Source of the DNA: Moniliella sp. 'wahieum'
Taxonomy: Eukaryota
Reading direction: 5' to 3'
DNA: 64,000 nt
NCBI GenBank assembly: GCA_003971905.1
Contig: RSEE01000003.1
Coordinates: forward strand, 1,116,001-1,180,000
Part shown: positions 1-62,730 of the stretch, piece by piece
Position numbering within the stretch: the stretch's first letter is position 1
How the letters are laid out: each line of letters starts with the position of its first letter
Made by a program: the position numbers and the translations under genes
The notes under the pieces: generated by a model
Told to the model about the DNA's origin: nothing
Databases searched by the model: none
The model's input: the letters and a program-made list of their open reading frames with translations, nothing else

Positions 1-584
1 ACTGGAATTGTGGTCGTCATTGACATTATGTGAACCCGTCGATGAACGGAGATCGCCAAGTGGCAATATAGATCCGAGATAGTAGTTCTCGGATCTCATA
101 TCTCAGCGCGTGCTGTGGGATATTCCGTGGGCAGGGCTTGGCGGTCCTGGCAAAGGAGCGATTCGTGCCGGGTGTAGATCATCAGTCATCGACTTGATCG
201 ATGCCCTCCCGGCTGGCTTTCCCAGGAGCCGACGACCAAACGGGGACTAGTGATTAAGTGATTGATGATGACCGATGACTTGATCAGACAGGCGGCGAGC
301 AATTGATAATCTGGGTCATCGATAATCGAGCGGGGTGGGGGCCGGTGCGCGCCGGACACTGGCGCTGTGGCGGGGGCGGGGGGCGTGCGCTAGGGGTATC
401 GGGGGGAATGCGCCGGGCAGCGGAGGCCTGCGCCTACCCGTGCCAGATGTTCGCAGTGATAACATGCACAACACCTTAGGTCTGGGGAGCCGCGCCGTGC
501 TTATCAATCGGCCCTGGCGCCTTGCTGGCTGGTGCGACGTTCCACCGGCTCAGATCGGCCCAGCTGACCCATGCGTCCACAGCG

Positions 585-591
585 TATAAAA
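585..591 (+). promoter_or_regulatory. Putative TATA box of the UPRTase gene
   Basis: TATAAAA about 125 bp upstream of the ATG at 712, followed by a CT-rich tract typical of fungal 5' leaders. Confidence 0.55.
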
Positions 592-711
592 GGCCGCCGC
601 TGCTGAGCCGCCGCCTCGCCCTTCTCTCTCTCTTCTCTCTTGGGTTCGTCCCCCTTGGCCCGCTGCCCAGCCCCGCCTTGTGCCTTGACCCCCCTCCCAC
701 CCTCGCCTCAC

Positions 712-1465
712 ATGAGCACCACCACTGCCACCCCCTCGCCCGTCCCCGGCGTCTTGGTCATTGACCATCCGCTCGCCAAGCACCACCTTGCCAACCTGCG
801 TCTCGCCGAGACGTCGGCCCGCGACGTGCGCTTCCTCATTGGTCAGATCACCTCTGTGCTTGTGATTGAGGCAACCAAGGACCTGCCCACTCACCAGGTC
901 CAGGGTGCCGGTCCGCTTGCCCAGTTCACAGGCAGCGAGGTTACGCCCCGGATCGGTGTTGTGCCCATTCTTCGCGCCGGTCTGGGCATGACCGAAGCTG
1001 CGCTCAACTTGTTGCCCGACAACACCTCTGTCCTTCACATTGGCCTGTACCGCGAAAAGGTATCGCTGCAGCCAGTCGAGTACTACAACAAGGTATGTTG
1101 TTTGTCATTTCTTTTCTCCACTCGACCTTGGCTCCTCGTCCTTGGCCCCTCCAAATACTGACGTTGAATTGTTCTTGGCAGCTTCCATCCCAACCCACTG
1201 TGGGCAAAGTGCTCATCCTCGACCCCCTCGTCGCAACGGGCAACACGGCTGTGGCCTGTGTGCGCATGATTCTCGATTGGGGGCTCAAGGTGGAGGACAT
1301 TCGCTTTCTCTCCATTCTCGGGTCCGAGCCCGGCCTTGCCCATCTCGCTGCGTCGTTTCCCGGTCTGACTATCTACACGGCCGCGATTGACCAACATCTG
1401 GATGATAAGGGGTATATCCTTCGGGTCTTGGCGATACGGGCGACCGGCTGTTTGACACGTTGTAA
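712..1465 (+). CDS. Uracil phosphoribosyltransferase (Upp-type), 2 exons
   Basis: Motifs DHPLAKHHL, VPILRAGLGM, HIGLYRE, PVEYYNKLP, ILDPLVATG and C-terminal GYI..GLGDTGDRLF. Intron 1093-1181 (GTATGT..ACTGAC..CAG). Apparent frameshift near 1420-1440. Confidence 0.93.
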
Positions 1466-4547: not shown

Positions 4548-4571
4548 GCGTCAGACGTCAGACGTCAGACG
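4548..4571. repeat. Heptamer tandem array (TCAGACG) x~3
   Basis: gcgtcagacgtcagacgtcagacg read directly; contains the palindrome GACGTC every 7 bp. Confidence 0.85.
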
Positions 4572-5153: not shown

Positions 5154-7840
<2,687 letters not shown>

Positions 7841-8699
7841 TCAGTACCCCGTGCCGTGTGCTGCGTGCTGCGTGCTGCCGTCTGCCGCTTGTCCAGTGCA
7901 GGAGCAGGACGCATGACGGCGACGCGTGACGAGATGGGCGGTGGCCTGGTGGGCGCCCTGGGGCTCCCCATTCCGGGCCGGTGACTCGTACCCGTCCGTG
8001 CCTTGGGGCGCAGTGGCTAGTGTGGCCCAGTGCCTAGGACTCCCGACCGAGGCGCCCTGGAGCAGGGCCGCAGCCGTGGGATGCGGTGTGGGATCGATGG
8101 GACAGAGCGAGTGCAGTGTGATAGCTACGGAAGCACCTACCAACTCCCCGTCCAGATGAGCAACATTTCATTATTAATCCAGGCGGCGACAAGGGACCAG
8201 TGCCCCAGACGGAGGGTGAGGCGTGACACGCGTGACAGAGGAGGGCTAGTGGCAAACGGGTCCTCTTCGAGCGCGTCACACGTCATGCGTCACTAGCACT
8301 CCTTAGAGCTTGGCACGTCCGATTGAACTCTGCACGCAGAGCCCCCCCCGCGCCCTGGTCCTGGCCTGGGGCACGGCGCTGCTCTTGCGTCTGCGACATG
8401 CACAGTGACCAGGTGGCTTGCGACAGGGCTTGCTGTTGGCCGCAGACACGCCATGCCAGCTCCTGTTCTATGCACAGGCCACGCAGACCGACTGCTCAGG
8501 CGCTCAGACCGAGCTCTCAGATCTCAGACGGAGCACGGGAACCGACTGGCTGTTCCTGCGTGCGCTGAGCGGCTCAGCGCTGCTGAATGGCTGAAGCTTG
8601 AACCAGTCGAACATGGAATACTGCACCAGAGCTGCGCTGGCAGGGCCCTCGCCCTTATTCAGGTGGGGATTGCGGCTTTGGAGGCCGGTGGCTACTGGC

Positions 8700-11650
8700 G
8701 CGTGCATGTGACATGTGACGCGTGGTGCATGATACACGATGCGTGACGTGTGATGGTGCAAGTTGGTGGCAAAGCCAGTCACGAATTAGCCGGCGCGCAG
8801 GGTAGGCGCTCATGCATCGCGTTATTTATTAGCGCTTGACGTACTGAGTAGCACGAGTACTGCGTCTGTGTTGAGTATGTGAGTACTCAGGCTCAGGGTG
8901 TTCTTGTGAGTAAATAAGTACTGAGTTTTTTTGGCTGGCTCAGTACTCAGTATCTCTTGAGTAACTAGTAACTAGTAACTAGTAACTAGTAACTAGTAAC
9001 GCGTAACGCGTAACGCGAGTCCAGTGCGTGACTGAATGCACACCTGCGACTTGGAGCTTGGGATGCCGGATGTGTGATGTCTGCATGATGTCTCCGATCA
9101 TTGGTGATCAATGCTTGCGCTTGAACCAGCACGTTTATTTGCACCCTCGGTGCCGCGGGCCAAGTTCTAAATGTGTAGCCTGTGTAGCGTGCAGCCTTGG
9201 AGCTTGGAGCTTGGAGCCTCTTGTAGTATAGCTTGTTTATTATTTCCGATTTTAACGCGTAACGCGCATCGTTTAACGTTTGCTGTTTAACGTTTAGGCT
9301 TTGCGCTAAGCCGCTAAGCGCTAAACGCATATAGTGCTTAGGCTAAGCTCAACGCCTCCCGGTTACCGCTTCCCGGTTCCCCGGGAAAATGGACCGCTCT
9401 TCAGTCTCATTGGTTTCATATTTCAGTCCCGGATCCCAGACCCTACACCGTCTGGCCCTAAGCTGTTGCAGCCGATGGAGCGCGGTGCCTGCATTGGATC
9501 CCTGCACCTCGCGGGGCCGGAGCCAACTGTCATGCGTTGCATCATGGCAACTGTTTACTGTAGCCTGAGTTATGCAGACGCCATCACTAGCATTTGTCAC
9601 TTGTTACTATGTCGCGTGCCCACTCGTCCCGCCGGCTTTTGCCAGGCCCGGACGGGGGCGTGAAAAGCAATTAACTTGACGCTAACGTGCTGACGGGATT
9701 ATGAGCCCCTGTGCCGCTCTTCGGCCTGAATATCTGAATCCTGAATAGTGACTAGCACTGATGACTAGGTGAGTGACTAGTGACTGAACCAACCAAGCGC
9801 CAAAAGGACATCCTGCATCCAATCCAAACCTGTGGCAACTATCCAACCCATCCTTCGGAGCAGGAAGATCATCGATCATCATTCACCGGTCACCGGTCAC
9901 CGGTCACTGTGGCACAGGTACCCCCGGCATCACGAGCTTCACGCATTACCCGTTGAGCTTTACCAAGCTGTATACCAGGTGCACCAGTGCTGTACCATCA
10001 GGTTGTAGCGGCCAAGGTGTACCTGGCAATTGGAATAGCCGTGGGGTAGACAGAAACATGGAACGAGAATCGGACCGGCGAGAGGGCGGGCCGCTGGTTA
10101 TTGACCGCTCCTTTCGGTCCTGTTCCGCCTCTGCTCCCCCCCCCCAACCGCCCCTGTTTGCCCCCCTGTGGCAGCCCGCCGCCCTTGTGAGCGAAAGCCC
10201 GCGCGCATCTCCTCTACCGCGTCCTACACCATGCATCATGCATCACCGGTCACCAGAATGAGTTACTGGGGTGGTCTCGTGGAAGGTAGCATAGCGTTGA
10301 ATGATGAAACGTTGAACGTAACGTTGAATGTCTGACAAGAATGGGAATTCGAACCCACGCCCCCAAGTTTGGAGCTACAAGCTGCTACAGCCGGCTAACG
10401 TATGTATCGGCGCTAGCTTGGACCACTGGTACTGAGTATACCGGGAGTACACTGAGCACGTACTGAGTACTGATCGATGATCAATGATCGGTGACGTCTG
10501 CATCATGCATCATGCGTCACGCGTCAGTGCGTCAGCACATCTGCATGTCAGATCTCAGACTGCAGGGTCCGTCAGGGTCTTGCCAGGTAGCACCGGAGGT
10601 ATCGGGTTGTGCAAAGGCTGGAGCAGGCTAGAGCAGGCTGGAGCAGGTAGGAGTCGGCTGCGCTGGCGTCGCCTGGCCGCCTGAGGGCCTGGTCCGGCTA
10701 CATGCAGATGCAGGTCGGATTCTCAGAATTCAGATGGTCAGCCGGTCAGATGTCGGAGCTCATGCGCTCATGCACGTACCATGCACCGAAGCAACTGATA
10801 CAGATGATCGATGGTCGATGGTCGATGAAGCTGCCGTAGCAGTGCTGTAGCCTGCAGAAGATGCTGCAGCTCCGCCGGCCCGATGTCGGGCAAAGCGGGA
10901 TACCGGACGTGTGAGATGTGACACGTGACATGGAATGTGATGCAATGCATGACGGCATAGCGTGACATGTGATGCACGTGATGTACGATACCACGCGTGA
11001 CATGTGACGTGCGGCGTGAGTGCAATCAGCATCACATGTCACAGGGACTAGCGACTTCTGACTCTAGCTACTAATAGTGCCTAGTGACTGACTAGCTAGT
11101 GACTAACCACAGTGACCGGAGTGACTAGTGACTAGTGACTAGTGACCTAGTGACCGGAGTAGCTAGTAGTGGTCCAAGCTTGAATTTTGAAGCACAACAT
11201 TGTCGCGCAGGCTGTAACCACATTATATTCACAGCCAAGCAACAAGCCGCCTAGAAAGCGCTGCTTAGGCTAAGCACTCAGTACGTCCAGTCACTATTCC
11301 TAGAGTGACTGTCGGGGCTTGTGAAAACAAGGGGCAGTCACTAGTCACTAGTCACCGGGTCAGATGGCGGGTGACGTAATGTTGGGGTTTATACGCCTGA
11401 GCCTCACCGGCACCTCAGATCCCTCAGACGACTAGAATGCGAAGAGAAGTAACTAGTAACAAGGGAAGCAAAGAATGCGTTGGTAGAGAGGAGGAATCAT
11501 CACTCAGGTTAATCAGGATCGGCGAAGAGCGAAGAGCAACTATAGTGATAGTGAGCCCCAGGCCTGATTAGTTCCTGATTAGCGCTTAGCTACTGTGACG
11601 CGTGACAGGTGGCAGTATAATTCTGAACATTGAACGTTGAACGTTCAAGG
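8700..11650. repeat. Dense field of 7-bp-period quasi-palindromic arrays (TNA + 4-bp palindrome)
   Basis: Examples: (TAACTAG)5(TAACGCG)3 at 8962-9017; (TCACCGG)3 at 9883-9905; TGCA-TCA-TGCA-TCA-CCGG-TCA at 10232-10252; (TGACTAG)3 at ~11122-11144; TCA-CTAG-TCA-CTAG-TCA-CCGG at 11338-11358; TGA-ACGT-TGA-ACGT-TCA at 11631-11647. Confidence 0.9.
10333..10427 (-). pseudogene. Degenerate tRNA-Leu-like sequence
   Basis: Minus strand reads AGTGGTCCAAG..GCGCC (A-box/D-arm like), then a disrupted anticodon region, a long variable-arm-like stem CTCCAA-AC-TTGGGG, and GCGTGGGTTCGAATTCCCATTCTTGTCA (T-arm/B-box plus 3' acceptor strand). No matching 5' acceptor strand is visible. Confidence 0.6.
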
Positions 11651-11878
11651 TGAACATTTAAGTTGAGCGTTGGTGTGAAGGGCGGAATGGGTGGGAGGGT
11701 TAGGCGGAGTTTCCATCACGTGACCATCTGGACCGGACCGGCCGGCCCAGCGCGGAGCGGCTCGGCTGGGCGCTTGGGGTTGCTGTGCTTTCGCCCCAAC
11801 CTGCCCGCGGCCCGCTTCCACTCGAGTAGGGCCTGGTGCGCGCATCCCCACCCCCGCCTCGCCGTCCGCACCCCCAGC

Positions 11879-14800: not shown

Positions 14801-17758
14801 CGCTCGAGTCGATCATGAGGCGGACGGGTGCTTCCATTGATTTGCACCTTACCGACACAGTGCGGGCGATCGACTGGGACGCATTCGAAGCGCCCCCGCC
14901 AACAAGGTCGAATGGTATGGGTTCGGTCCGATCCGGCATGTCCTTGCCTTCTCGGGAATTTGTACGGCCCGAGGTACCTCCACGTGATGCAATGCACGCC
15001 GACTTGGCTCGCTTTGTCGCGCATCTTCGCAAGCTGAAGGGGATGAGCGCGTGGGATCCATGCAACTTGCTCAAGCTTCAAGACAACATCCTAGCCCCCC
15101 GCCCCCCTCCCGTGGCAACACCCCGGACATCCATGACGACCAGCCGGCGTCCGTTTCGATGGCGCGTGAATCGCCTACTCAGGCAACCCCGATCGATAAA
15201 CCCGCTGCTCCCGCCAATTCTACGTCCTCAGCCCCCATTCACTCGGTCCTTTCTGAATCAGGTACCCGGGTGTTCGGGCGATACGGAAGGACTCTGAGCC
15301 TAACGTTTGGGCTCCCCAGCTCCCCTAATCCCATCGGCAGCAAACTATGCGCCACCGCCTGTCCAGGCACGTCCACCAGCCCCAACGATCAAGTACCAAC
15401 CCCGGCAGCGGCCACCACAGAGGCGCAGTACCGCTTCCCCTGCTCCGAGCCCTCCCCCGACGGACTTATTGAGCCCCTCGATCGACCCAACGCTGCGTCG
15501 ACATGGATCGGTGGGCTCGTCAATGGATCGCGCTTTCTCGCCTGCCGGTTCTCGCCCCCCAACTTCGCCCTTGTCACCAGGAACGGGACGGGAGTATCCG
15601 ATCACCACCTCCTACATCCCTCGCCGTTCCAGTTCGAGCATGGCCAATTCCCAACACGCCCATCTACGTGCACCGTCGGAGCCTGTGCGTTCCAGCCGCT
15701 CCCCCCTTGCTTCCCCCGCCCCGACACCTTCCTCGCCCAGTTCCAGCCCGCCCCGATCGACAGTGTCGACGTTTGAGTCGGCCGTGCACGCACCTTTGCT
15801 TACCCGCCCAGAACCGATCAGAGCCACAACAGTGCCCGTGACGGACGACGAAGACGATGCACAACCGATCTTGCTTTCTCGCAGAGGGCCACCGGTCCGT
15901 GTCACCGCGTCCCCATCCCTGGGAGGTAGCATGCCCACCATGCCCACCAGCGACGACTCGGACGATGACATCCCACTTGCTCATCGCGCAGCTACGATCG
16001 CCAACCGTTCTTCTTACTCACCGGCTCCGAAACCTTTGCCGCATCAGGCCCCAACTCCAATGATGCAGACGATCATTACTGAGAGCCCGGCGGGGGCGGA
16101 CCAGGATGTGCCTCCCCTGGCCCTCGGCCCGAAGTGACAGCCCCTGCCCCAGAACCAGAATCGGCTCCAGTGCCAGCTCCAGTGCAAGCTTCAGTGCAAG
16201 TGCAAGCTCCGGAAGATACACCTACCTCCACTGGGCCGACTGATGTGCCCGCCTTGACGGATACTGCTGGTCCCACAACCCTGCCCATATCAGTGCCTGC
16301 TTCTGTTCCAGCACCCAATGTGGTTGAAGCCCCAGCGCCTGATTCACATGCGGCTCCTACAGAAGCGGTGGAGCCTGCGGTCGCTCCTGCACCCACAACC
16401 ATACCCTCATTGGCTACAGGTTCCACTCAGGCTCCTGCCCCGGCTCCTGTTTCAACAACATCCGTGTCAACGCCTTTGACGGCCACACCAGAAAAGCAGC
16501 GCAAGCGTCTTTCGCTCAAGAGCGTCTCGCCGAAGCCACGCGAAAGCGGACTTCGTTAGGCAAGACACCACTATCCCCTATCGTTACCAGCCCTACCACC
16601 TTGCAGAACTCGTCCTCTCCTGTCAGATCTACTCCCGTTTCATCTCCAATGGCCAAAACCGCAACCACTGCCACTCCTGCCTCCACGGCCGTGGAGGATG
16701 TTTCAGTGCCCATCGCGCAAACCCGCAAATCTACGATGGAGGGGACAGCCAGGTTTCTAAGGGAGACCTGGGGAGAATGGTACGAAGGGCAAATCTGGCA
16801 CCCCCGTCGCTTCACCCACGCTTGATGTTGAGAAGAGGGAGCACCGCGACGGAGAAGGGTACGGAAGAAAGGGTTGACCTCACCACAGCCAAGGAAAAGG
16901 AGACTGCTATCACAGCTGTTCCCTCGGTCGGTGTTGCTGAGACTGTGGCAGAGTCTGTTCCTGGGCAAGAAAAGGTTGTCATGCAGCAACCTTCCTCCCC
17001 GGCCCAAGAGAGTTGTCGCATCGCACCCAATCCTGAATCCAATTCGCCCTCACGTTCCGGTCCTGAGGCGCTATCCGAGGCTACTGCATCCTACTCTGAT
17101 TCTCCGCACCCCACTTCTTCAAAGGCAATTCCAGAGGGCGTGGTCACAACGCCAGACTCCGCGTTACCTGCTGCAACGTCTGCGGAGCAACCCGAGAAAC
17201 GAGTCCCTGCGGAGGAGTCCGATCTAGAGGCCCCAAAAGAAACGATGGAGACGGCTTCTACCGATTTGGTGGTCGCGCCAGTCAACCCTCAGCCCGACAA
17301 GGAGCCAGCCAAATCTGAGCCCGACAAGGAAACTACAAGTCCTGATACCCGGACGAGCCTGTCGGATCGTGCCGAAGCACGGCAGGATGATGTGGAACAA
17401 GCAGGTGTGGCTAAGCCCGAAAACAAGATAATCCAACCCAGCACCTCGCCTCCATTGGATTCAACCGCATCGGATCCGCCCCTGGTTTACCCTCTCAAGC
17501 GGGGGAAGGCGACGCGGCTGGGCCGGAAAAGAGCACTGTGTCGTCCATCACAGCTGATCTGATCACCTCAGACACAACGCCTTCTTCCCTGCCCACGCCT
17601 GAGCCTGAGCCCGAATCTCTCGTTACTAGTGAGGACCAAGTCGAAAATGTCGACCCAGATACACAGGTCGCCTCTTCCCCGGCCTTACCAAGGAGGAGAA
17701 GGAACGCGAGAAACGTCGCCGTAAAAAGAAAGCGCAACGGCAGCGCAAGAAAAAGTAA
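11879..17758 (+). CDS. VPS54: GARP complex subunit Vps54 with long Pro/Ser/Thr/Glu-rich C-terminal extension
   Basis: GFNAISTVLNHP, LESVPSVFF..LSDPRYF, EKLSFYSDVIEQHL, and the Vps54 domain EFLKQFNSRVCQLVLGAGALRSAGLTNINARHLALA..EFDRLRQDYTDHRMEIQTKLVSI. Intron ~14520-14580. Many frameshifts; tail inferred to end at KKKAQRQRKKK* (17758). Confidence 0.88.
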
Positions 17759-18943: not shown

Positions 18944-18978
18944 TGCATCATGCATCATGCATCATGCATCACTAGTCA
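18944..18978. repeat. Heptamer array (TGCATCA)4-CTAG-TCA in the APS3/nucleoporin divergent promoter
   Basis: tgcatcatgcatcatgcatcatgcatcactagtca read directly. Confidence 0.9.
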
Positions 18979-20931: not shown

Positions 20932-21074
20932 TCCAGCGTGGAACGGTGGACCGGCGGCTGCGATGGCGACTGGGGAACGGTGGCTACGGTGGCGAAGGTG
21001 GACCGGTGGCTACGGTGGCGAGCAAGCACCAAGCACCAAGCACCTGACCGGGCCGTAGGCCGGTGGCCCTCTAG
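20932..21074 (+). mobile_element. Short non-autonomous Helitron-like element, copy 1 (3' end)
   Basis: GC-rich hairpin ACCGGGCC-GTA-GGCCGGT (21047-21064), 6-nt spacer, CTAG (21071-21074) followed by T. Internal ~10-bp GGTGG repeats. Homologous to 26281-26387. Confidence 0.65.
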
Positions 21075-26387: not shown

Positions 26388-26540
26388 TATAGGTAATTAA
26401 AACGTCGGTACCACACAACAGTTCTTCGCCGGCAGTCAAGGTTCAGCGTGGTGGATGCCTGCTTTGGATTGGCATCAATAAGATATGAATACGTTGAGTA
26501 CTCAGACTGAGGATTCATATACATGTACAGGAGAAGGACT

Positions 26541-26671
26541 TTGTTTTGCTTTTTGCTTTGCTTTGCTTTGCTTTGCTTTGCTTTGCTTTGCTTTGCTTTG
26601 CTTTGCTTTGCTTTGCTTTGCTTTGCTTTGCTTTGCTTGCTTTGCTTTGCTTTGCTTTGCTTTGCTTTGCT
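26541..26671. repeat. (GCTTT/AAAGC)n pentanucleotide microsatellite, ~25 units
   Basis: Read directly; gives the spurious CFALL/KAKQS ORFs. Confidence 0.97.
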
Positions 26672-28884: not shown

Positions 28885-29728
28885 CAGGGCGGGTTTGTCC
28901 AGGGGGGGGGTATATGGGGGGGGTCAGGAATGCGGTGGTGTTGGGCAATGCGATGGTAATGGGCGACCTGGGCTGCAGTTGGTCCTCGGTGAGAGAAGGC
29001 CGGTGGCGGCGAATGTGATTTTGGATTGCATCAGGTTCTGGTGGTTATCGATTATCACCTGCTAATGCGCTGATAAAGTCATCGATAAAGCGATGAGCGT
29101 TGGCCGATGAGCGATCGCGGTGATCGATGATCGGGCGAGCGATCGCGTATGGCATGCTATCAAGTCCTCTCAGCCTCTGCTGGGATGGTCGACAGCCGAT
29201 AGGAGCGCCGCCAGGAAATCTGCCCTCGTCCGCCCGCCTCTGTCCTGGTGCCTGCCCTGGTCTGGCGATCGAGTAAGCCTCGGGTGCACGTGCCAGGCCT
29301 GCCAGACCTCAGGCTGGCATATTGATGTGACCAGATGCCGATGCCAAGCGAAACGGCAAGGAAGAGCGCTGTAGTACAGTAGGTCAAGTAGGCCATACTA
29401 GGGATTGATTGCTGGTGAGCGATAGAAGAGAGCAGCAGAGAGGGAGGAGGGAGTGGAAGAGAGGAAGACCAAGCTACGATTGCCGAAACTTCGGGGAGGA
29501 GACACGTCGGACTGCAAAACTTTCGCCCGCGGAGGGAACCGTAGCGGAGCGGGCGGATTAGGGTGGAAGTGGTTGGGAGCGCCAGAGTCCGGCTATGCTC
29601 TTGGCACACTGCAGTAGTGTTCCAACAATATGCCCGCAAGCATATCCAGGGCTATCCAACAAGTCACAAGTCTACGACGACTGGGAAAAGAGAGTAGGAA
29701 AAGATGCAGATGGAATATAAGTGCCTCC

Positions 29729-31773: not shown

Positions 31774-32398
31774 GGAAGACGGACAGGGCTGAGAAGACGG
31801 GAGAGAAGAGTGTGGTGGGCGAGACTATGTATGTGCGGCGTGTGTCGACTGCGTCGACAGCATGCCCAGGCGCCTGGCCAGCCCAGCCGAATTTTTTTGT
31901 TCGCCCGGGATGGCCTGATTAAATGGGCGGGGCGATCGGTGCATCGCACGCATCAGCCATTGGGCTGGTCACGGGTGGGCGTGGGTGTGGCCTGCTGCGC
32001 GGAGACGGTGTTGTTGAACGTTCAACCGGCCGTGTGGGTGCACGTACTCGTACTCCGCCCGAGTACCCAACGGAGTCTCAGACCGACGTGTTGACAGGAG
32101 ACAGGGGGCGAGGGCGGCGAGAGTGGCGCCGTGCGGCTCAGGAGGCCACGCGCTGTTGCCGCCAGCTGCCACGCAGTTAAAGTACGGCGGTGCGCGCTGC
32201 TGCGCGGCAGATGCTGCCCCAGTGCGGCGCCAGTGCTGAACCCCTGCCCACGGTGTCCTGTCTTTATAGCCGCTACCAACGGGGGTTATTTATCTGCCCC
32301 ACCTACACCACCCCGCGCCCCTCACCTCCACCTCCGCCTCTGCCCCCGCCCTTGGCCTGCTACACCACCCTCTCTCCGTCCAAAGCACATCCGTCGGC

Positions 32399-36809: not shown

Positions 36810-38097
36810 ATGCCCCCGCAGACGTCCCCCGCGCTAACCGTTCCCACAATGGACGACGGCTCGCAGAGTTACCCGTTCAACTACGACCCCCAGCAGGGCT
36901 ACAGCTATGGCAACATGCCCCTGGCTACCAGCACATGTACTATCAGCAGATGTACAACAACTTCAACATGGTCACCCCCTCCATGATGGCCGCGGCGGCG
37001 CCAACCAGGCCGCGCCCCAGGCTCCCCCAACGCCGCCGTGCCTGGTTCCGTCGCGTCATCTGCTGCTCCCTCGGACCCCGCCGCGGCTGCTGCTGCTGCT
37101 GCCGCACAACACTACATGCCTTACGGCCACCCGCAGTACTTTGCCGGAATGATGCCCCCGGGCATGTCACCTACGAGACGGCCGCCGCTTCCGCCGCCGC
37201 TGCTGGCTCGAAACACGCCAAGATCAAGGATGCCATGGGTGGTCTGGATGAGCGCAAGTTCAAAAAGAAGGAGATCCTGTCGTCAAGAAGCCTGCGCGGC
37301 CGCACGTGCGGCCGCCAAAGCAAGCGCCGTCGGCCTGGCAGATTTACTTCAACGAGTTGCCGATATGCGCGCCAAGAACCCGTCGGAACGATTGAACGTG
37401 TCCCATGTCGCCCGTGGTGCTGGGGAGCGGTACAACGCGTTGCCGAGGAGGAGAAGCGTCGGTACTACGAAGAATCGCTTCGCCGCAAGGCGCAGTGGGA
37501 AGCCGACGTGCAGGCTTGGCTTGAGAAGTTGTCGCCCGAGGACATCAAGCTGGAAAATGCGTACCGCACCCAGCAGCGCAAGTCGGGCAAGTCGCGCAAG
37601 TCGAACTTGAAGGATCCGCATGCGCCCAAGAAACCGCTTTCGGCTTACTTTTTGTTCCTTCGTTCCATTCGCGCCTCGCCCGAGATGACCAAGGAGGGGT
37701 TTAATGACGAGAGTGAAACAACGAAACAAAGTGTCCTGGCTGCTACCAAGTGGCGCGAGCTCGACGAAGACCGGAAACAGCCCTACCTTCTCAAGGCGGA
37801 GCAGGACAAGCAGCGGTACGAGGAGGCGCGCAAGATGTACGACTCAGCAACGTCGGTGCCTGGTGTAGACGCGTTGGTTGCGCACGAGCAGGCGCAACAG
37901 GCAGGCAAGGCAGCGGCCAAGAAGTTTGCCGAGACCAACCCGCAGATCCAAGAGATTATTGCGCAAGGCCGTGTCCCTCGGCGCTGACGTTTGATGTGGA
38001 CGAGGAAGATGTCCAGTTGGCTGCACAGGCCGCGACGCACAAGGACCATGGGCGTCACGGTCGCAAGTTGGCCAGTACGAAGCTGAATGAATGTTGA
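36810..38097 (+). CDS. Two-box HMG protein resembling Coprinopsis Exp1, with Y/Q/N-rich N-terminus
   Basis: Box 1 PPKQAPSAWQIYF..LNVSHVARGAGERYNAL; linker PEDIKLENAYRTQQRKSGKSRKSNLKD; box 2 PHAPKKPLSAYFLFLRSIR..ETTKQSVLAATKWREL..PYLLKAEQDKQRYEEARKMY; frameshifted. Confidence 0.9.
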
Positions 38098-38989
38098 GCG
38101 AGGCGGCCGAATCGAAGTAAAAGCCTTTTACTTCTTCGGGTCTCGATCTCGACGCGTCGGACGTCGGACGTCGGGCGGACGGGTCTTGTTGTTCTGGTGT
38201 ACTATTCCTCCCTGTTCCTGATGGCTATGCGCGTCCTAATCCGTTGTCCGTTGTCCGTTCTCCCTTTCTCTTCCTTTTTCTCCTTTCTTTTTTTTCTCTC
38301 TCTCTGTCGTCCCCTTTACATCTTCCTTGCTGCGGGTGGCTCAACTGAACGTTGAACCCTCGTGGCACCTGAGGATGGCAATCGGTTATGTTGTCTGTAC
38401 ATTGGCTTTTGAAGGCTTGCTTGCTTGCTTGCTGTGCGTTAGGCCAGTGGGCCGTCTGCCCGTCTACAGTTGTGCTCCTGCATCTTTGATGCCGCAGGCC
38501 TCAGGGCCATAGCCCCCGTTCCGTGTCTATACTCAACGTTCGCCGTTCAACCTCATCTGAGTCCCGAATGTACTTTGATCTGCGTCGTGGTGCCTGGGCA
38601 GGCTCAGGCGCTCAGGGCTCGCGCTCACCACCAGGAGAGACCCAATCACTATAGTAGTGGGTTGTTGGGGGAAATATGCACGACACAGATGTGCTGAAGA
38701 TGAATGGTAAACTGACCCGCTCGAGGGAAAGACTGAGTACTGAACAGACTTAATGAAGCAGAGCACGAGGACGCCAACGGTGTAAGGAACACAGACCAAC
38801 AGTAGTATTATAGCCCGCGGGAAAGTTTCCCACCCTCTCAGCCACAAACACAAAGGAGAGACGAGAGTACTTTGGTTTGGTTCAACGTACAGCGTCCAGA
38901 CAAGCTGGCCGGGTCTTCTGACGTAAACAGCCTAGGCAAAAGGAAGGCAAGGAGAGCATGTCGTCTGACGCGTCGCGTTGCGGGTTGCG

Positions 38990-39293: not shown

Positions 39294-42200
39294 ATGGCAG
39301 GCCGCAAGCGCCACTCTGCGCCCCACTCGGACGACGAAGCGGATACCAGTGTACGTCGGCCCCCTCTGCTCTGTCTGTGTGCGTGGTGCGTGGTGCGTGG
39401 TGCTAGCAGGGTGCTAACATGGCGCTGACATGGGACAGGCCAAACGCGCGCGTCTCAATGGCGAAGAGGACGACGACAGTGACTACCCCGATGCCCAGCT
39501 CTCCGACGCGTCTGAGGTGGAGCAACCGATGCCCCTGACTGGCGCCAGTGTACGTTATCCCCCCCCTCAACCCCCAACCCCCAACCCCCCATGCCTGTGC
39601 CGCTACCGTGTTTCTGAGCTGAGCTGACGCGGTGCAGAATACCATGCTGAGGCCGGTCCAATCGAGCACATTGAGGTGTTCAACTTTATGTGCCACAAGC
39701 GCATGAGCGTCGACTCTGCCCCAACCTAAACTTATCGTCGGCCACAATGGAAGTGGCAAGTCGGCCGTCTTGACCGCCATCACGATTGCCCTGGGTGGAA
39801 AGGCGAGCACTACGAACCGCGCCGGCAGCATGAAGAGTTTCATCAAGTCGGGTGAAAAGTACGTTCTGCCCCCTGGTTGATAGGCAACAGAGTCAGAGCC
39901 ACTGACCTCATCCTGCAGTTCGGCCGAAATTGTGGTTCGTCTGCGCAACCGCGGAGAAGATGCGTACAAACACGAAGTTTATGGCGATAGCATCACCATT
40001 GTGCGCCGCATCCACCTCGATGGCGGTGCGTCCTGGAAACTCATTGCCCACAATGGCAAGACCCGCTCGACGCAGCGTGCCGAGCTCAGTCGTATCCTGG
40101 ACCACCTCGACATTCAAGTGGACAATCCCATGTCGGTGCTCAACCAAGATGCGGCGCGGCAGTTCCTCAGTGCCTCCAACCCGGAGGAAAAGTACGCGTT
40201 GTTTCTCAAGGGAACACAACTTACTCATCTGGCTCAAGAGATGGATACGCTCAAGGACCACAACATGGAGATCAAGGCTGCTTTGAGCAAGCAGAAGGAA
40301 TACCTGCCTGACCTCAAGGCCGAATACGAGGAAAAGTTGCGCAAGTTTGCGCAGTTTCAGAAACAACGCGAGGGCAAGCAGAAACTCGAGGAACTGTCCG
40401 ACACGTACGTCTGGGCTCAGGTCGCAGAGGCCAAGAGGAAGTACGAGTTGGCAGGCGAGGAAGTGCGCAAACAGGGCAGTAAGATTACCAAAGCGCAGCA
40501 AGCCGCCCAGGTCGTCGCCGGCGATCTCGAGCAAACCGACACGACCCTTTCTCTGATCGACCAGGAACGGCAGAATGACCAGAGTGCGGACGACGAGCTT
40601 GTTCGTGCGCGTGATGAAGCAAGGGGACGCGCTCATGAAGCCATTAGCCAACGCGAGGGCAGCTCAGGTGAAACTGCAAGAGATCAGCGAGCAGTACCAG
40701 GTCTACAAGAATCAGCATGAGAGCGCGCAAGCCAAGTTGGACCAAGAGCTGCGCAAGGCCAACCAAGCAGGCGAACGAGAGGCGTGGATGGAACAACGCG
40801 CTCAGGGCCAAGCCAAGATTGAGCAGATGGAACAAGAGCTGAATGACCTGCAGGCGCGGAAAGATGAGGTTGAGCGCCAAATTGCGCCGTTGCAAGAAAC
40901 TCTCCAAAACATCGACACTGACTTTACCCGTCTCGCGCGCAACGTGGCCTCCACCGAGCGCACCGCACGGGAGATCAAGGCGGCTGCCCAGGACAATCTC
41001 TCGGCGTTCGGGCGGTCGATGCCTGCTCTGGTTCGGGCGATTAAGCAAGAAAAGGGATGGCACACCCCCCCAGTGGGTCCTGTGGGGAGCTACATGAAAC
41101 TCAAGGACGAGTCTTGGCTTAACATCATCGAGGCCATTCTCGATAAGGACCTGAATGGGTTTTGTGTGACCAACGAGCACGATCGACAACTTCTCCTGAA
41201 ATGGACGAGGCGGCTTAATTGTGCGTCCTTTGTCCCCATTCTACGGGGCGATGATGAGCCATTTGATTATTCCTCTGGCGAACCCGATCCGGCCCTCACC
41301 ACCATTCTGCGGGTGTGCGAGTTTGAGTCGGACTACATCAAGCGCCAGCTGATCATTTCGCGCCACATTGAGCGTACCGTTCTTGTTCGCCAACGCAGCG
41401 ATGGTGACCGCCTTCTCCGCAGCGGGCACGGATTAAATATGGTGCACAGTGCCGATCTCTTTCGCATCACAGGTGGTGACCGTACCAGTTCCTCCACCGC
41501 GATGCAACGTCCCCAGGGGGCGCATCGACTGAGTAAGGACAACTCTTCGGCTCTGGCCGAGGCCGAGGCTGCACTCAAAGAGCTTCGCGTGGAGCAGCAG
41601 TTGCTCACTGAGCGCAAAGATCAGGTGCGCGCCGAACTCACCGCCGTGCGGGGACAGCTGCAATCTTTGACCAACCAGTCCACCTCCGTGCATCGTAACC
41701 TACGGAAACTGCAAGCCGAAGTGGGTCAGCTGAATGGTAAGTTGCAAGCACAGACGACGGTGGATGTGGATGTATTCCAAGAGATGGTGGACCAGGCCAA
41801 GCAGCACATGGAGGAGGGTAAAGAGCGTTTCCGTGTGACCAACGTCGAGGTGGAAGAGATGACGAAAAAGGAGGGGGAAGCCCAAGCTGTTTACGATGAG
41901 ATTCGACGTCGTCTCGGAGAGCGGGAAAGCGGACAACGCGCCATGACGGAAGCAGCAGAGCAAGCAGCACAAACGAGAGTCGCGCTACGGCACAAGCTCA
42001 CTCACTTGGAACGCAAAGTAACTGAGTACTCGGAAGAACTCAACTCGTTGGCCGAGCAGCACGAAATGGACAAGGCCGATTTCGAAGAGTTGGTCAAGCA
42101 GGCCAAGGAGCATACGGGATTGGAGTACCATGAGGTGGGTCCTTCGGTTACGTCGGCCAAGATTGAACAAGAGATTCGCCAATGGGAACAGTACATGGAC

Positions 42201-49317: not shown

Positions 49318-49729
49318 TGTGTTGGAACGGGCGATGGCGAAGACGGCGGTTCGTGTGAGTCTGGTGTTGGCGTGGACGTTGAGCAGGATGGCCGACGCCT
49401 CACGTCGTCCGCGTGAAGGTCACGTGATCATACCCGCTGTCTGTGCTTCGACGCGTCAAATTTCAAAGCGCATCAACCACACAAGGTATCGATCGCGTTT
49501 GAAAACTGCTGTGGGAGTGTACAATGGGTACGCCACTGGTACGCCTGCACACTTGAAGCTTGAAGGTTGACTTCCAACTGGGGGATTGAAGCGTGAAGCT
49601 TGAAGCTTGAAGTATCCTTGCACCAAGGTATCCACCACTATCTCTTCGGTCTTGAGGGTGCATATCAGCTAGCGCCGTAAGCAAAATATTAGCACCCTCT
49701 TGTACTCCCCTTTTTGAGAGTAAACACAG

Positions 49730-51170: not shown

Positions 51171-51758
51171 GCCCGTGGCACACCTGCAAGTCCGTGACTG
51201 GGACTGTGGCCAGCGCAGAAAGCAAGATGGTGTGGGAAGGAACAAGCCCCTGCCAGAACCGCGCATCGCACAGGGGCGGCGGTGCACAGGCGCGGCGCGG
51301 CGTGGCGCAGGAGGCACAGGAGGCACCCAGGCAGTAGTTCAGTGTCTATGGATGCAACCCAAAGCCCCCAGACCTAAAACCTAAGACCTAAGGCCTAGCA
51401 GCTAGTAGTAACTAGTAACTAGCAGCTAGTAGCCAGTATGGCCTAGGCCCAAAGGGACGCCACAGGCGTAGCCTCCAAGATACACGAAGCTTGAAGCCCC
51501 CCGTCCAGGCTGAGCCGCCCTCGTCCACACTATTGACGTGACGCGTGAGGCCTGAGGATGGGATACAACACTATTGGATCACTAGCCACTCGTCTTGTCA
51601 CCACCTTGTGTGGCCAGAGTCGGGCATGAGCACTGCGTGGGCATCAAGAGGATGCGCTAAATAGGGGGTAGGCAACCCTCCATTCGATTCTTGAAAATGT
51701 ATTTCGAACAATGCCGGTCGCGGTAAGGGTAGGGAGTGAGGTGGTGGGAGGCTAGGGA

Positions 51759-52942: not shown

Positions 52943-53801
52943 TCGTGAGGAGGAAAACGGCGGTGGAGCAACGATTGAGCGGGTGGATCGAACACGCTGT
53001 GTCTCTGGCAAGTTGAATCCCCCACCGCCGGGGCCACAGCTGCCACACAACATGCCATGGAGCAGCCAGGGGCCCACACGGCCACAGGCGGAACTCGGGC
53101 TGATGTTGCAATTTCAGTGGCTTATTCCGGCCCCGCTGCATTGAGCATAGATAGGTACCTGGTTCAACTGAACGTTCAACCAACCTGCCTGTCAGCGATG
53201 TGACAGATGGCCAAGGGCCGACGACCGATGATAGATCAACGCCAGGCCAGCTCAAGCACAGATAAATCCAGCCCAACAGGACAGGTCCAATCTCCGTCGG
53301 CGGCGGGGCCGGCTAGCCCTGGTCTTATACTCCCCCGAGCCCGTGGCAGGAAAGGGTTAGCGGCGCTTACTGGTTACCAGCTTCGCACTTCTCCCGTATC
53401 AGGGCCAGAGCAGGCCACACAGGAAGCCATCGGTCATCGGACCCAAACGATCAATAGCATTCAATCTGTTCCTTCACGACCTGGGAAATCTCTATGCCTA
53501 CCGCGCACATGAGGGTGCCCAAGCCCACAGTTATGTGCAGTGGAAATGGCGCCTCAAGCTCAAGCTTCTCACACGAAAAGGGTTACCCAGGCATCAGGCC
53601 TCAGGGCAGCCGTCAGCCGGTCACGCTCTCTCTACGAGGACTGGCATCGACGGAGCATATGCCGCACACTCAATGCAGTTCCTCCTGAACCATATGTTCC
53701 TTCACTGAACCGCAACGAGGGAAGGCAATTCTCAATGGGGGTTCCCGTGATTATCGGTTACAGGCGACAACAAAGGGAGTAGGCTTTGCTGTATTCTAAT
53801 G

Positions 53802-53883: not shown

Positions 53884-53958
53884 TACCTTCGTGCACCGAG
53901 TCGAGTTGCGTGGCTACGCGTTCAAAGTTCATCGTTTCCCACCCAGCACTTGTTCAAG

Positions 53959-57951: not shown

Positions 57952-58017
57952 GGCGGAGGAAGGGTGGGTGGTGAGTTGGGTGGTAAGGAAAGGCAAAGGC
58001 TTGCCTCTGGGTGGGGA

Positions 58018-58025
58018 TTTATATA
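58018..58025 (-). promoter_or_regulatory. Putative TATA box of the OPT gene
   Basis: TATATAAA on the minus strand about 70 bp upstream of the ATG at 57951. Confidence 0.6.
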
Positions 58026-61000
58026 CAGGGAATCCTTGCGTGCTCCCGCCTGCTGATACCGGAATTGGACGAGCCACCGCTGAGCCACTGGCGAACCCAC
58101 GTAGTCATCTGCGAGCCCCTGCGAAAACACGGGTTCATCTGAACGAATGTGACCTTCTAGACCACCCGAGGCACACTGTGCCAGATCGAGGCGAGGCCAT
58201 TTCAGTATGAGACAGCGGGGGGGGCTCTCAGGTGGCGAGTGCGGTGGGCGACGAACGGTGGACAACGTTGGGTTGCTGGTACTCATCGATCATCGATCAT
58301 CACTGTGGGTCTGTGGATAGGCGATGACTGTGACAGAGATACGAGTTCGCAGTAGCATGTGTCGGCGACCTTGGTGGGGAGCTCAGTGCCCCCGTGCCCC
58401 CACCAACGGTGCTCACCCACACCGACTCGATCATCGCAAACACCACGGCCTGAGGCAGAGCAGGCCATAGTCCTGCATAGCCTGGCCAACGAGCGCCGAA
58501 TGACTAATCCCAGCAATGGCTGAGGGCCTGAGCGCCTGGGTGCCAGCACACGTTGGATGTCCAGGAACGCCGTTTCTGGTTCTGTCCCGAAGGACGAAGA
58601 TGATCCGGCGAAGACACCCAAGACTACGCTAGTCCCGCGCCACGGATCAATATAGCTATCGCGCAAGCCTCAGGAACATCCCTGGACGAGGCGTGGTTGG
58701 TCGACACTGTTATCGTGCGGGGGTGTGTTATCCATATGCTATCGCGCCGATCACATCCATCACCACCTGTTTGCATGATTGGCTCGGTGACAGTGACCTG
58801 TGACCTCGTCACCCGAGTGTGGCCGTCGCACAGCGCCTGTGGGAATGTGCTGCTCTGCACCATATGGCCCGACGGTTTCTCATCTTTTCATTTCAAACGA
58901 TTCTTGGCACAGCAACGCTCAGCGCAGTAGTTCGGTTGGAACCGTGGTGGCTTATCTTCGGGAAAACAATGCCGGCGCGGCTGCCATGCCTCAGCGCCTC
59001 GTCCTGCCCGGCTGGGCGGCTGAGCTGAGCTTCGGAGCACGCGCGCCACAGCCTGCCGTAGTGCATAGCAGGCCATCGCCTGACGCGCTGACGCCAGCCT
59101 AGGTGATGCTCAGGCCTGCTCAGGCTCGACGAGCGCTGCGGTTGAGCCTGATTGAGCGCGTCCCAGATCCCACCAGGTCCCAACGCGCAGCGTGCTGGCT
59201 CTGGCCATCAATGCATCACATGGCATATGCCCGCAGCACCACCACATGGCTGTTCGGATGCCACGGCAAGGCCACACCGGTCACGCGGAAAAGGACCGCA
59301 TGGTTCTACGGTTCGTCCAATTTGTCCGCATTCCCCACCTTTAAGCTTTGGCGGTGATATATGGACGAGGGGCAGACACGCTTCTCACTAGCGCAGAGGA
59401 GGCAGAAGGACCCACACGTTACTTCTATATTGCCGCAGGCCCTTCGTCACAGAGATATGCCGAAGCACTGTCACATTGCATTGTCACATGTGGACAACAG
59501 ACGCATGACCCTGTTTCGGAAATTGGACACGCTGTTACAGGACGGCGGAGTCGAAAATGGGGGTGTATGGCAACGGCACTGTTGCAACAAGCTACAGTTT
59601 GTTGCAGTTCGCCACATTATCGTCGGCAATCCGCGCAGACGCAGAAAGCTAGGGGGGAACATACATTCTGAGTATGGAAGGCGTGGACAACGACGGCTTC
59701 CAGCACACCGCTCCACCCACAGGGGGTAAAGAGGCGGGGGCGTAGCGGGGTCGCGAAAAAGTCGCACATGGATATCCAGTTAAGCGGTACCCTCGATGAA
59801 TTAGTGATCCTCAGGCCTCACGCGAATATACCGCGTACCGGCCAGACCCCCATATGGCCGATGTGGTACCAGTCTCGGCGTACACAGCCTGCATGTGCAT
59901 GTCTGCGGGTCCCGCCAGGGTCACGCCGGTCAGGCCGGCCACGGCAGATCCCGGCAGGCCTCGGCGCAATTTTCTATGTATACCGCACAGTACTGGGCAG
60001 TACTCAGGTACACAGTGTGTCCTCAGTATTCCATGTGTTTAATCTATCACCGTTCAGCGTGATCATCGACCAACTGTAGAGTACTCTGTGCATACGGGCT
60101 GCCCCACTATATCTCTCAGAAAGAAGTTTCCGAATCGCAGATAGTGTGGAGGAGACCGCGACTCATACGTGCGAGATAACTCGATTAGCACCCGAATTGT
60201 GTGTTTGTCAAGCGTCAAACGTTTCGGTATCTTGCTCAAAAAAACGTGTCTTTTGCCACCCTCTTATAGATCAGAGAACCATTATTGCACCCCAGCGTTT
60301 TCTCATTCTGGTTTATCTCGATATGATAGTTGTGGGTCGCAGTACTCTATCCCTCGCGTCCACAGCGAGTTGCTGAAGCTGCCAGTTGCGAGCCGCGAAA
60401 AGTGAAGCCGTTCCAGGTCGTATTGAACGTTAAACGTTCCTGAATGTTTTGAGCTCTCGAGCGCGCTCAGCCTGAGCGCTCCCACCGCAGCATTCAACCA
60501 GCGCTCAACGCAACGTGCTCTGGAATAAGGCGTTCCTCCAAACGAGGGCTTCAGATCCAGGTCTGATGGTTGTGGTGCATTATAAGATGGAGGTTTTTCA
60601 TTTAACTCAAAAGGCTACCTCTCGTCTAAATCCCTCTGCTTGGGCGCTCGACCGCCGTTCCACACCGTCCACCGTCCACCGTCCCACCGTCCCACCGTCC
60701 ACAGTTTCACCGTGCACTGATCCATCGTCCACAGTATGGTTGGCTGTAAAAGTCATTGGTAGTATGGGCAACAAGTAATACAGAGGTGCGATATATACAC
60801 CACACAGCGTGTGACGTTTGCTGATATGCGAACCAAAAATTGGGAGACCGCAGTGGAGTCGCCAGCAGATCGGGACTCTCCTCTGGCTCTCGCCATAGAC
60901 TTCCAAAAAGCGAATGAGCCCGAATGAATATGAGAATGAGAGCATGGTAGAGACATGCGAGCGACAATGAACCACATTGCATCTCCAATGAGAAATCATG

Positions 61001-62368
61001 TTTTGGCAATGTTGGTGGCAAAGTACCCGTTAAGTCGTCATGACCCGAGGAAACAGTGGCCATTGATAGCGTCCGTCGAATACTTGGAGTTCTTGTCTTT
61101 GCTTTCCGCTTGCTCCAGCAGGCGATGTAGATTCATTTCTGCTGTGGCGTTCCTCACATGTCACACGAGCGCGTCAGGTCCCATCACTCGGCAGTCCGTA
61201 TAATATGCCTGGGCTTTATCCCGTCCGTCTGGGGTATCGTCCTTCCTCACATATCGGCAATAGAAATAGACCAAAAAAGACTATAAGTAGTATATATACA
61301 TGTGAAGCACAACACTCCCCACAGTACATATGCCAACGTGTGTTGTATTGCACACAAAAAGTCTGAACGAGAAGTGTATAGATGTTAATCTTTCTCGGCA
61401 TCAACGGTCTAGGCAAGAGCTCAAAAATCCCTGTGGCTTCCCACAATGATCCGTCTGGTTTTTCGCCACGGTCGTTCTTTGCGTGTCTCTGTGCTTGCGC
61501 GCATCCTTCACACTCTTGTTGTTTTCTCTGTGGATCTCTGAGATAACCAAGTATAATAGTTGATGGCAATAATAATTCGCACATGGGCGCCATATTTTCT
61601 TGTACACATGACCTCTCTCTCTGTGTTATTGTATCACCACAATGGTACTAGCCCTCTGGTTCCCTTCAGTGCATATTGGTTCCGATGTTGATCCTACACG
61701 GAGAGCATTGCAGGAATAATCTCTAGCCTCTTCTGCATAGTTCATGCGCGCAATGCACAGCCTATGCTCTCCGTGCTGTGGCCTTCCACGCCGAGAGGTA
61801 CTAATATAGTGCATCTCTTCTATATTATGGCGCATACTTGTGTTGAGTGCATTCCACTTAAGGCCTACCTGGCGCACGATCGGACTTGAGTCCACAGTAG
61901 AGTAACTACCGTTCCATCTATAGTCCACCGTTTCATAATAGGTCATCGTATGATCAAGAAGGGGGTGCACCAAACGTGGCGCATGGGCCTGTGAGATAGA
62001 AGTGCTATAGGGTTCTTGCTCGGCCCTCAAGTTGATCGCAGTGACGCTCTCTTAGTCGGGCGGAGGGGTTCCTTTCGCAAGCATCAACACAGCGCACCCC
62101 CTTCCCCTGCTCGCTCCATCTCTCTGCTCTGTGTGTCTCCTGTCTCCTTATTCCTCAGACGTTGCTTGAAAAGATGTGGCTCACCGTTTTGCTTCCACAG
62201 GCATCACGTCTTGTTTGAAGGCTCCGCCTCCGTTTAGGAGATGTCCCCGAGTGTTCGCAAATCGTACTCTACTTGTAGTAGTATTGGCATGCTTTGCATT
62301 TGAAACCCGGCGGTTTCTACACCCTGAGAGAAGAGCCCCTTATCCCTCTGTCATGTTATACCCCGCGG

Positions 62369-62392
62369 TTACCGGTTATGCATGATGCATGA
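62369..62392. repeat. Heptamer array TTA-CCGG-TTA-TGCA-TGA-TGCA-TGA
   Basis: ttaccggttatgcatgatgcatga read directly. Confidence 0.85.
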
Positions 62393-62730
62393 TGGCATAG
62401 ATCGTGAGACCTGAGGAACAGAATTCATGGCGGCCCCAACGCCGCTAGCGCCCGCCGCGCAGACCGAGCACCGAGCGCGCGCGCTGAGTTAGTTGTCTTG
62501 GGGCCACTGTGGTAGCTCTGTAAATTATCTAATCGTCCCCGCCTTGCGGCAAGCATTGTGGAAATGAAAGTATGAACTTGGTGATTCGATTATTATCGCC
62601 GCACAATGCGGCGGTCTCTCCTGTAGATATAGCTATCGTGGCCAGGCACTCTCCCCACCCAAAACAGCAATGCGCCCCCAGGCTTTTAGCAAGCTATCTC
62701 TTTTGCGCTCGCCCACCACCCGCGACCATC

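Follow-up and report, generated by a model that had tools for sequence, protein, structure and literature searches.

Here, we show that the non-coding DNA of a 64,000-nucleotide stretch of contig RSEE01000003.1 from Moniliella sp. 'wahieum' (positions 1,116,001 to 1,180,000 of the forward strand; "the window" below means this whole stretch) carries many short arrays in which a T-N-A anchor (TNA) recurs every 7 bases and is separated from the next anchor by a self-complementary 4-mer (N4). This pattern is real and lies far above chance. Its elementary element is not a pair of full heptamer units, but a 12-mer of the form TNAcd + d'c' + TNAcd, or the reverse complement of that form, in which d'c' is the reverse complement of cd. 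As to their cause, we infer that the arrays are probably transposon footprints of a new type. The ingredients of such footprints, which are target duplications, flank hairpins and P nucleotides, are known; what is new is that they have accumulated across the window as a uniform system of arrays, which has a target of its own and a junction that is even.

The period of 7 stands out in several counts. Among the Tandem Repeats Finder rows for the window, 45 of 146 have period 7 by our own count. Perfect arrays, counted when they span at least 2k+3 bases for a period of k, number 22 at period 7 compared to 10, 8, 1 and 2 at periods 5, 6, 8 and 9, respectively, and all of 20 dinucleotide shuffles are devoid of perfect period-7 arrays. 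Outside the long open frames, a fraction of 10,733 bases that makes up 16.8% of the window, lag-7 identity reaches 0.305, compared to about 0.26 at the neighbouring lags. The anchor and the junction are equally specific. TNA-N4-TNA with a palindromic N4 is found 78 times, where 7.3 ± 2.8 are expected and the maximum among 100 shuffles is 14 (8.3 ± 3.4 are expected from a separate set of 30 shuffles), whereas TNA-N4-TNA with a non-palindromic N4 shows no excess (106 versus 117 expected). Half-palindromic N4 also remain at chance, both for those with a complementary outer pair only (30 versus 25.0) and for those with a complementary inner pair only (26 versus 21.5), and N4 that lack any complementary pair are somewhat below expectation (50 versus 71.0). 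When all 16 anchors of the form X-N-Y are compared, TNA alone stands out, with ANC as the runner-up (23 versus 13.6). The 78 links group into 50 clusters and make use of 13 of the 16 possible 4-base palindromes, ATAT, TATA and TTAA never being used, and the two N of a link are the same in 66 cases, complementary in 6 and different in another way in the remaining 6. With respect to location, 39 of 64 runs fall in the 16.8% without long open frames, and the runs lie mostly 5' of genes, as far as the Pfam-based gene map goes.

An earlier note on this DNA had claimed a shared 7-bp period, a TNA anchor and a palindromic junction with at least ten palindromes in use, and had proposed autocorrelation and TNA-N4-TNA counts against shuffled DNA as a check. 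Both period 7 and palindromic N4 indeed prove to be in excess in these analyses, and the number of palindromes in use rises to 13. Of the 20 array coordinates given there, 18 hold a strict TNA-palindrome-TNA; at 25371 and 10805 the palindrome itself is present, however with an anchor that is one base off (GGA and TGG, respectively).

What is the elementary unit of the arrays? For each palindromic link with the same N on both sides we extended the period-7 identity to both ends, which yielded 52 runs. Run length has its mode at 12 (18 runs), lengths of 10 and 11 are rare (4 and 2 runs), and on division by 7 the length leaves a remainder of 5 in 20 runs, of 6 in 10 and of 0 in 8, a distribution that points to a base length of 7k+5 plus chance extension. 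The runs start at the T of TNA in 22 cases and two bases earlier (position p2') in 13, and they end two bases past the A (position p2) in 20 cases and at the A in 15. The 12-mer can be described as a 5-base direct repeat in which a 2-base spacer carries the repeat's final two bases in reverse complement. This 5+2 case, when TNA-initial, is observed 78 times and occurs 0.15 times in shuffles (20 shuffles). In a grid of alternatives, with direct repeats of 3-7 bases combined with 0-4 inverted bases, the other cells are near background save those that long arrays produce, as in (5,0) with 10 versus 5.8, (5,1) with 6 versus 1.25, (5,3) with 1 and (4,2) with 5 versus 1.35. Of the 41 single-link runs, 16 are extended by exactly two bases on one side and by none on the other, where 7% is expected (binomial P = 6.7e-9), while full 14-mers and bare 10-mers account for 4 runs each. 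Across the 18 canonical runs, 11 different base pairs of the cd kind are found duplicated. Of the spacers in same-N 12-mers, 78 are perfect, 16 deviate by one base and 10 bear no relation to the expected form, and five 12-mers have a complemented second N with the d'c' spacer and the cd extension both kept. Individual runs that illustrate the rule are the following, with the strand where one is assigned.

11032..11043, plus strand: 12-mer TCACA-TG-TCACA, from the run-extension analysis.
15071..15082, plus strand: 12-mer TCAAG-CT-TCAAG, from the run-extension analysis.
29045..29056, plus strand: 12-mer TTATC-GA-TTATC, from the run-extension analysis.
38346..38357, plus strand: 12-mer TGAAC-GT-TGAAC, from the run-extension analysis.
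53594..53605, plus strand: 12-mer TCAGG-CC-TCAGG, upstream of a ribosomal L11-like gene.
61154..61165, plus strand: 12-mer TCACA-TG-TCACA, from the run-extension analysis.
49594..49612, plus strand: 19-mer TGAAG-(CT-TGAAG)2, of length 7k+5.
58283..58301, plus strand: 19-mer TCATC-(GA-TCATC)2, upstream of an OPT transporter gene.
11120..11146: (AG-TGA-CT)3 AG-TGA followed by C, 27 bases, 7k+5 plus one chance base.
11336..11355: (AG-TCA-CT)2 AG-TCA followed by C, 20 bases, the reverse complement of the array at 11120.

The last two arrays, (AGTGACT)n and (AGTCACT)n, are separated by 190 nt and form the sole inverted pair of arrays; the DNA between them has no inverted ends.

The palindrome seems to be a product of the event and not its target. 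Isolated odd-palindromic 7-mers centred on TNA occur at chance level (168 versus 167), which argues that palindromes were not a pre-existing target. Erosion of 14-mers to 12-mers is unlikely, as edge decay would leave equal numbers of matching 13-mers and 12-mers and we find 3 and 16, respectively, and the base two positions beyond the 12-mer is d' in only 7 of 16 cases. Taken together, the improbability of erosion and the chance level of isolated palindromes indicate that the event itself makes the palindrome from the local flank. Any palindrome is then possible, hence the 13 kinds of palindrome and the 11 cd pairs. In addition, the 12-mers have no predicted structure (folding energy of 0 kcal/mol, z of 0.77 and -0.04), so that DNA structure cannot start them.

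Three other routes to the arrays were considered and rejected. Symmetric duplication, over 7 bp, of a site that was already palindromic is not compatible with the low number of 14-mers, only 4 of 41 single-link runs, nor with isolated palindromes being at chance. A 3-bp duplication of TNA with remnants of transposon ends would need 13 different termini, and the bases past the second TNA repeat the local flank. Finally, cleavage of the hAT type with a one-base offset would predict odd palindromes.

From the sequence statistics, the event takes the form ab-TNA-cd to ab-TNA-cd-d'c'-TNA-cd, with the mirror product ab-TNA-b'a'-ab-TNA-cd. Left-hand and right-hand versions can occur at one TNA, for instance at 51537-51557. 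The composite chains at 51537-51557, 10230-10254, 10460-10482 and 8960-9017 contain at most two palindromes each, with one switch, and each of them could be derived from one ancestral site. The composite and longer arrays are listed here.

8960..9017: composite chain (AG-TAA-CT)5 AG-TAA-CG (CG-TAA-CG)2, with the palindromes CTAG and then CGCG and a single switch, as would be expected from a left and a right event at one ancestral AG-TAA-CG.
10230..10254: chain TCA-TGCA-TCA-CCGG-TCA-CC, a left and a right event on one TCA (left CA-TCA-TG-CA-TCA, right TCA-CC-GG-TCA-CC).
10460..10526: TGA and TCA anchors spaced 7 bases apart, with junctions GTAC, TCGA, TGCA and CGCG and the partly decayed junctions TCAA, TCGG and TGCG.
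18944..18978: (TGCA-TCA)4 and then CTAG-TCA, just upstream of an AP sigma-subunit-like gene; the last unit, at 18969-18978, is an exception in that it is a bare 10-mer from which the expected extension is absent.
51537..51557: CG-TGA-CG, CG-TGA-GG and CC-TGA-GG in succession, a left and a right event on one ancestral CG-TGA-GG.
62366..62394: GG-TTA-CC-GG-TTA and then (TG-CA-TGA)2-TG, upstream of an aldose-epimerase-like gene.

What could produce exactly this form? We give an about even chance to the explanation that the arrays are the accumulated scars of one event that adds exactly 7 bp at T-N-A, with transposon excision as its cause. A cut-and-paste transposon, or a nuclease derived from a transposase, would insert and create a 7-bp target-site duplication centred on T-N-A, and its excision would leave hairpins on both flanks, exactly at the border of the element. 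Host nucleases would then nick each hairpin 2-3 nt past the tip, which would result in 4-nt palindromic 3' overhangs; after opening, the left end would carry the 3' overhang c-d-d'-c' and the right duplex would begin at T. End joining would retain one overhang and ligate it to the other side's recessed 5' end, giving ab-TNA-cd-d'c'-TNA-cd if the left overhang is kept and ab-TNA-b'a'-ab-TNA-cd if the other overhang is kept. These two predicted products would be exactly the two mirror forms that are seen. Opening three bases from the tip would give a product identical to that of opening at two, and opening four or five bases from the tip would complement the second N and leave the cd extension intact, as in the five 12-mers mentioned above. 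Longer arrays may have grown by repeated hits on regenerated TNA sites, by replication slippage or by both, each of which would preserve 7k+5. For a dimeric enzyme one would expect a symmetric target, and nn-T-N-A-nn is symmetric. Palindromes without a loop are the characteristic mark left when a covalently closed hairpin is nicked away from its centre (P nucleotides), and hairpin opening of the Artemis type takes place 2 nt from the tip. Two arrays that depart from the basic form, one in its length and one in its second N, are given below.

9883..9907: (TCA-CCGG) array of 25 bases, 7k+4, the rule minus one base.
32013..32026: complemented-N variant TGAAC-GT-TCAAC, also a perfect palindrome, which fits hairpin opening 4-5 nt from the tip.

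The window contains TGAACGTTCAAC-type palindromes at 32013-32026, 53169-53180 and 11636-11647, which also count as complemented-N 12-mer variants. We take these palindromes to match the heat-shock-element pattern nGAAnnTTCn.

A number of observations weigh against transposon excision as the cause. No transposase domain is present in the 130 open reading frames (ORFs) of at least 150 codons across the window, nor in 112 of the 380 ORFs of 70-149 codons, taken from selected gene-poor regions. A terminal-inverted-repeat search of the window gave no pair of note, and inserts flanked by 7-bp nnTNAnn direct repeats with inverted ends number 0 in the window; other duplication lengths in this insert search gave single matches, at chance level. 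The product is far more uniform than the hairpin-repair footprints measured in the relevant passages of PMC5873905, and the palindromes here are even, whereas the Ac/Ds palindromes of those passages have one complemented base at their centre. With 50 clusters in 64 kb, the density is very high and would require a very active process. The 7k+5 rule is broken at 9883-9907 (7k+4) and at 18969-18978 (bare 10-mer), and the empty ancestral state of every site is one that we infer from the present sequence.

Several known transposon and recombination systems share features with the arrays. Enzymes of the hAT, Transib, RAG1 and MULE groups are described in passages of PMC5499845 as leaving hairpins on the flanking DNA, which are thought to be opened by host enzymes of the Artemis type, after which end joining leaves footprints. 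For Ac/Ds in Candida albicans, the passages of PMC5873905 report 28 kinds of footprint in 128 excisions, the two commonest making up 53 of the 128; these footprints comprise deletions and P-nucleotide palindromes that centre on a base complementary to the one beside the element, and host factors such as Pso2 open the hairpins (PMC5873905). As far as the accounts of hAT footprints go (maize Ac/Ds in plants, S. cerevisiae and Candida albicans), they resemble the arrays in two ways: the target-site duplication is retained as a short tandem repeat, and the junction palindrome derives from the flank (here 78 versus 0.15, with 11 cd pairs in 18 runs). By the same accounts, however, Ac/Ds has an 8-bp duplication and odd palindromes and is heterogeneous, in contrast to the period of 7, the even palindromes and the single dominant product here (78 versus at most 10 for any alternative). 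The odd palindrome of hAT footprints is absent, all junctions having the even form cd|d'c'. Target-site duplications of 7 bp are described in Basidiomycota for hAT7 (Puccinia, Melampsora) and Kyakuja (Laccaria) in passages of PMC12730594. These cut-and-paste elements are like the arrays in this 7-bp length; they differ in that the passages on them describe no footprints, and no such element or transposase was found in the window.

In V(D)J coding joints, and in cleavage of the Transib and RAG type, the hairpin forms at the exact border, and opening it off the tip yields palindromes that are even and have no loop, with about 2 nt on each side; the even P-nucleotide palindromes expected from border-exact hairpins are what we find here. 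Transib and RAG duplicate 5 bp at the target. The direct repeat in the window is 5 bases long; starting from a 5-bp duplication, the observed product would require asymmetric opening of the two hairpins, whereas a 7-bp duplication would yield it with symmetric hairpin opening. No RAG-like or Transib-like gene was seen in the window. For the explanation put forward in the earlier note this has a mixed outcome. Its structural part, in which an NN-T-N-A-NN site is duplicated with a junction made by fold-back, fits the 12-mer rule, the mirror forms and the complemented-N variants. Its causal part is still a matter of interpretation, and an origin that is specifically of the hAT type is not supported, because the palindromes are even and the product is far more uniform than Ac/Ds footprints.

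Could the host itself make this product? An endogenous replication or repair error of fixed geometry, without any mobile element and with slippage extending the product, seems unlikely to us, though it has more in its favour than the other alternatives to excision. It could take the form of a template switch at T-N-A, or of a host nuclease with a 7-base stagger and hairpin capping. The window search found no mobile element, the product is unusually uniform for end joining as described in the footprint accounts, and the lag-7 identity that is left after masking (0.288 versus about 0.265), together with the 18 of 34 arrays of generic form described below, hints at a wider period-7 bias. Such an error has difficulty, however, with the loop-less palindrome, which simple fold-back priming cannot make, and with the 12-mers, which do not fold. 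Flank complementarity that could guide a template switch is not visible in the 18 canonical runs, and we know of no host process that yields a 7-base stagger at T-N-A. We consider it somewhat less probable still that the arrays grew by structure-favoured slippage, in which odd-palindromic heptamers form slipped hairpins with T-N-A triloops and therefore expand more often than other microsatellites. Long arrays do fold modestly better than shuffled sequence, the T-N-A forming 3-nt loops (z of -2.28 and -2.45), and arrays of odd-palindromic heptamers prevail in some metagenome contigs that are unrelated to the window (26 of 35 runs in L005 and 7 of 11 in L026). But slippage of this kind needs two full units, whereas the commonest element is the fixed-phase 12-mer (16 of 41, P = 6.7e-9), for which no structure is predicted. 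Moreover, centres of the form A-N-T, C-N-G and G-N-C should fold equally well, yet enrichment is restricted to T-N-A, and isolated odd palindromes are neither depleted nor enriched.

Selection for cis-elements, in which clusters of palindromic transcription-factor sites or stop-codon-rich insulators would be retained in promoters, is in our view very improbable. It would agree with the position of the runs, mostly 5' of genes, and with the fact that each TNA reads as a stop codon on one of the strands, which at period 7 is brought into all three frames; the junctions ACGT and ACGCGT, which we take to be known core motifs, count in its favour as well. Yet 13 palindromes and 11 cd pairs share T-N-A as their only common motif, unlike a homotypic cluster of sites, and a fixed 5+2 phase would be meaningless for protein binding. 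An assembly or base-calling artefact can practically be dismissed, because the junctions follow the local flank and some copies have decayed (16 spacers with one deviating base next to 78 perfect ones); the pattern is also concentrated in non-coding DNA. Transposon excision, to which we return here, has its own more far-reaching version, in which a still-active hairpin-forming transposase, possibly domesticated and element-free, cuts T-N-A in the open promoter DNA of this lineage. We regard this version as doubtful. If true, each visit would write a 7-bp unit with a new palindrome of 4-6 bp, and the lineage would have a built-in generator of heptamer microsatellites and palindromic cis-elements that accounts for a major share of non-coding indels.

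Should the footprint explanation hold, past visits of a transposon or nuclease could be counted in a genome by one sequence rule, and the arrays would show the birth of microsatellites of an unusual period. A mutational process would then keep adding short palindromes, which are potential regulatory sites, to promoters. The signature predicts an exact empty allele for each site, a target duplication of 7 bp with the form nnTNAnn for the responsible element, and repair enzymes of the host that open hairpins 2-3 nt from the tip.

Heptamer arrays are known from elsewhere. Heptanucleotide repeats of bacteria and cyanobacteria (STRR, the Xanthomonas and Nostoc heptamers and the TAACTGA repeats) are on record (PMC4692102, PMC4679880). 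They resemble the arrays in being intergenic, of period 7 and often rich in stop codons; they differ in having few fixed units, often in inverted pairs, whereas here many units have only T-N-A and a flank-derived palindrome in common and follow the 12-mer rule. The window, with its eukaryotic-looking, intron-bearing genes, its 13 palindromes and its one inverted pair, does not conform to the prokaryotic type. A metagenome scan for (TNACTAG)3 returned 122 loci, 80 of them with flanks, none of which resembles the window. In the majority, the contig abounds in fixed heptamers of the bacterial or cyanobacterial kind, and a few belong to unrelated eukaryote-like contigs; many metagenome contigs contain (AGTGACT)n and (AGTAACT)n arrays alongside other heptamers. 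Leaving aside two loci of about 620 bases, the density of non-CTAG 12-mers is highest in L070. This contig of 8.7 kb consists almost entirely of tandem repeats of 5-8 bases (128 Tandem Repeats Finder rows), and L065 (14.4 kb) carries a dispersed (CTAGTAG)n satellite, with one centre type in 53 of 96 runs. In L005, L006, L036 and L026, which come from one metagenome sample series, odd palindromes make up 28-74% of the period-7 runs and include all four centre types (ANT, CNG, GNC and TNA); a (CCCTAAA)n tract in L036 suggests a eukaryote. Run lengths in these four contigs lack a peak at 7k+5, and they therefore provide no evidence that the fungal pattern is lineage-wide. Our literature searches turned up no account, in fungi, of heptamer arrays anchored on T-N-A or of a footprint rule of the 5+2 kind, and a search for the exact motif returned nothing. 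They likewise gave nothing on the heptamer arrays that the earlier note mentions for Ustilago.

The window also contains heptamer arrays of a generic kind. Of 34 perfect arrays, 18 lack the TNA-plus-palindrome form, and TNA occurs in only 2 of these 18; examples are found at 5161-5186, 9196-9217, 21023-21044, 39379-39403 and 60663-60684. When TNA-type runs are masked, lag-7 identity is still 0.288 compared to about 0.265, and the generic arrays contribute to this remaining signal. One further array combines a TNA centre with a junction that is not palindromic.

4549..4571: (CG-TCA-GA)3, a heptamer array centred on TNA whose junction is not a palindrome, from the perfect-array list; possibly a precise 7-bp duplication without the hairpin signature.

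The genes of the window have a eukaryotic and fungal appearance. Both the UPRTase domain and the eIF2B domain are spread across two open frames, and in the UPRTase gene an intron with GT...AG ends can be discerned. Pfam domains in the window include Zn2Cys6, a fungal-specific transcription-factor domain, an HMG box and an OPT transporter; the nearest protein-atlas clusters of a kinase are basidiomycete, and the best database matches of the window proteins reach an identity of only 63-71%. A tRNA scan and an Rfam scan of the window gave no match. The G+C content of the window is 58%, and it drops to 0.485 at 60001-62000 compared to about 0.58 in the rest; in this segment no ORF of at least 70 codons has a Pfam match. 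The arrays are most conspicuous in one region.

8200..11800: long divergent intergenic region that holds 21 of the 50 clusters, delimited on the Pfam gene map.

This region is flanked by the kinase gene on the left (minus strand) and a Vps54-like gene on the right (plus strand), and its ORFs of 70-149 codons are without a Pfam match. Repeats of other periods are found as well. The window has a (CTTTG)26 pentanucleotide microsatellite at 26539-26671 and a (GTG)25 tract at 7677-7751, in the 5' part of the kinase open frame. A family of CTACCAGCACATGTA-like repeats of 15 and 30 bases lies at 34424-34711 and 36925-36955, the latter copy within the open frame of the HMG-box gene, and these repeats probably encode a repeated peptide.

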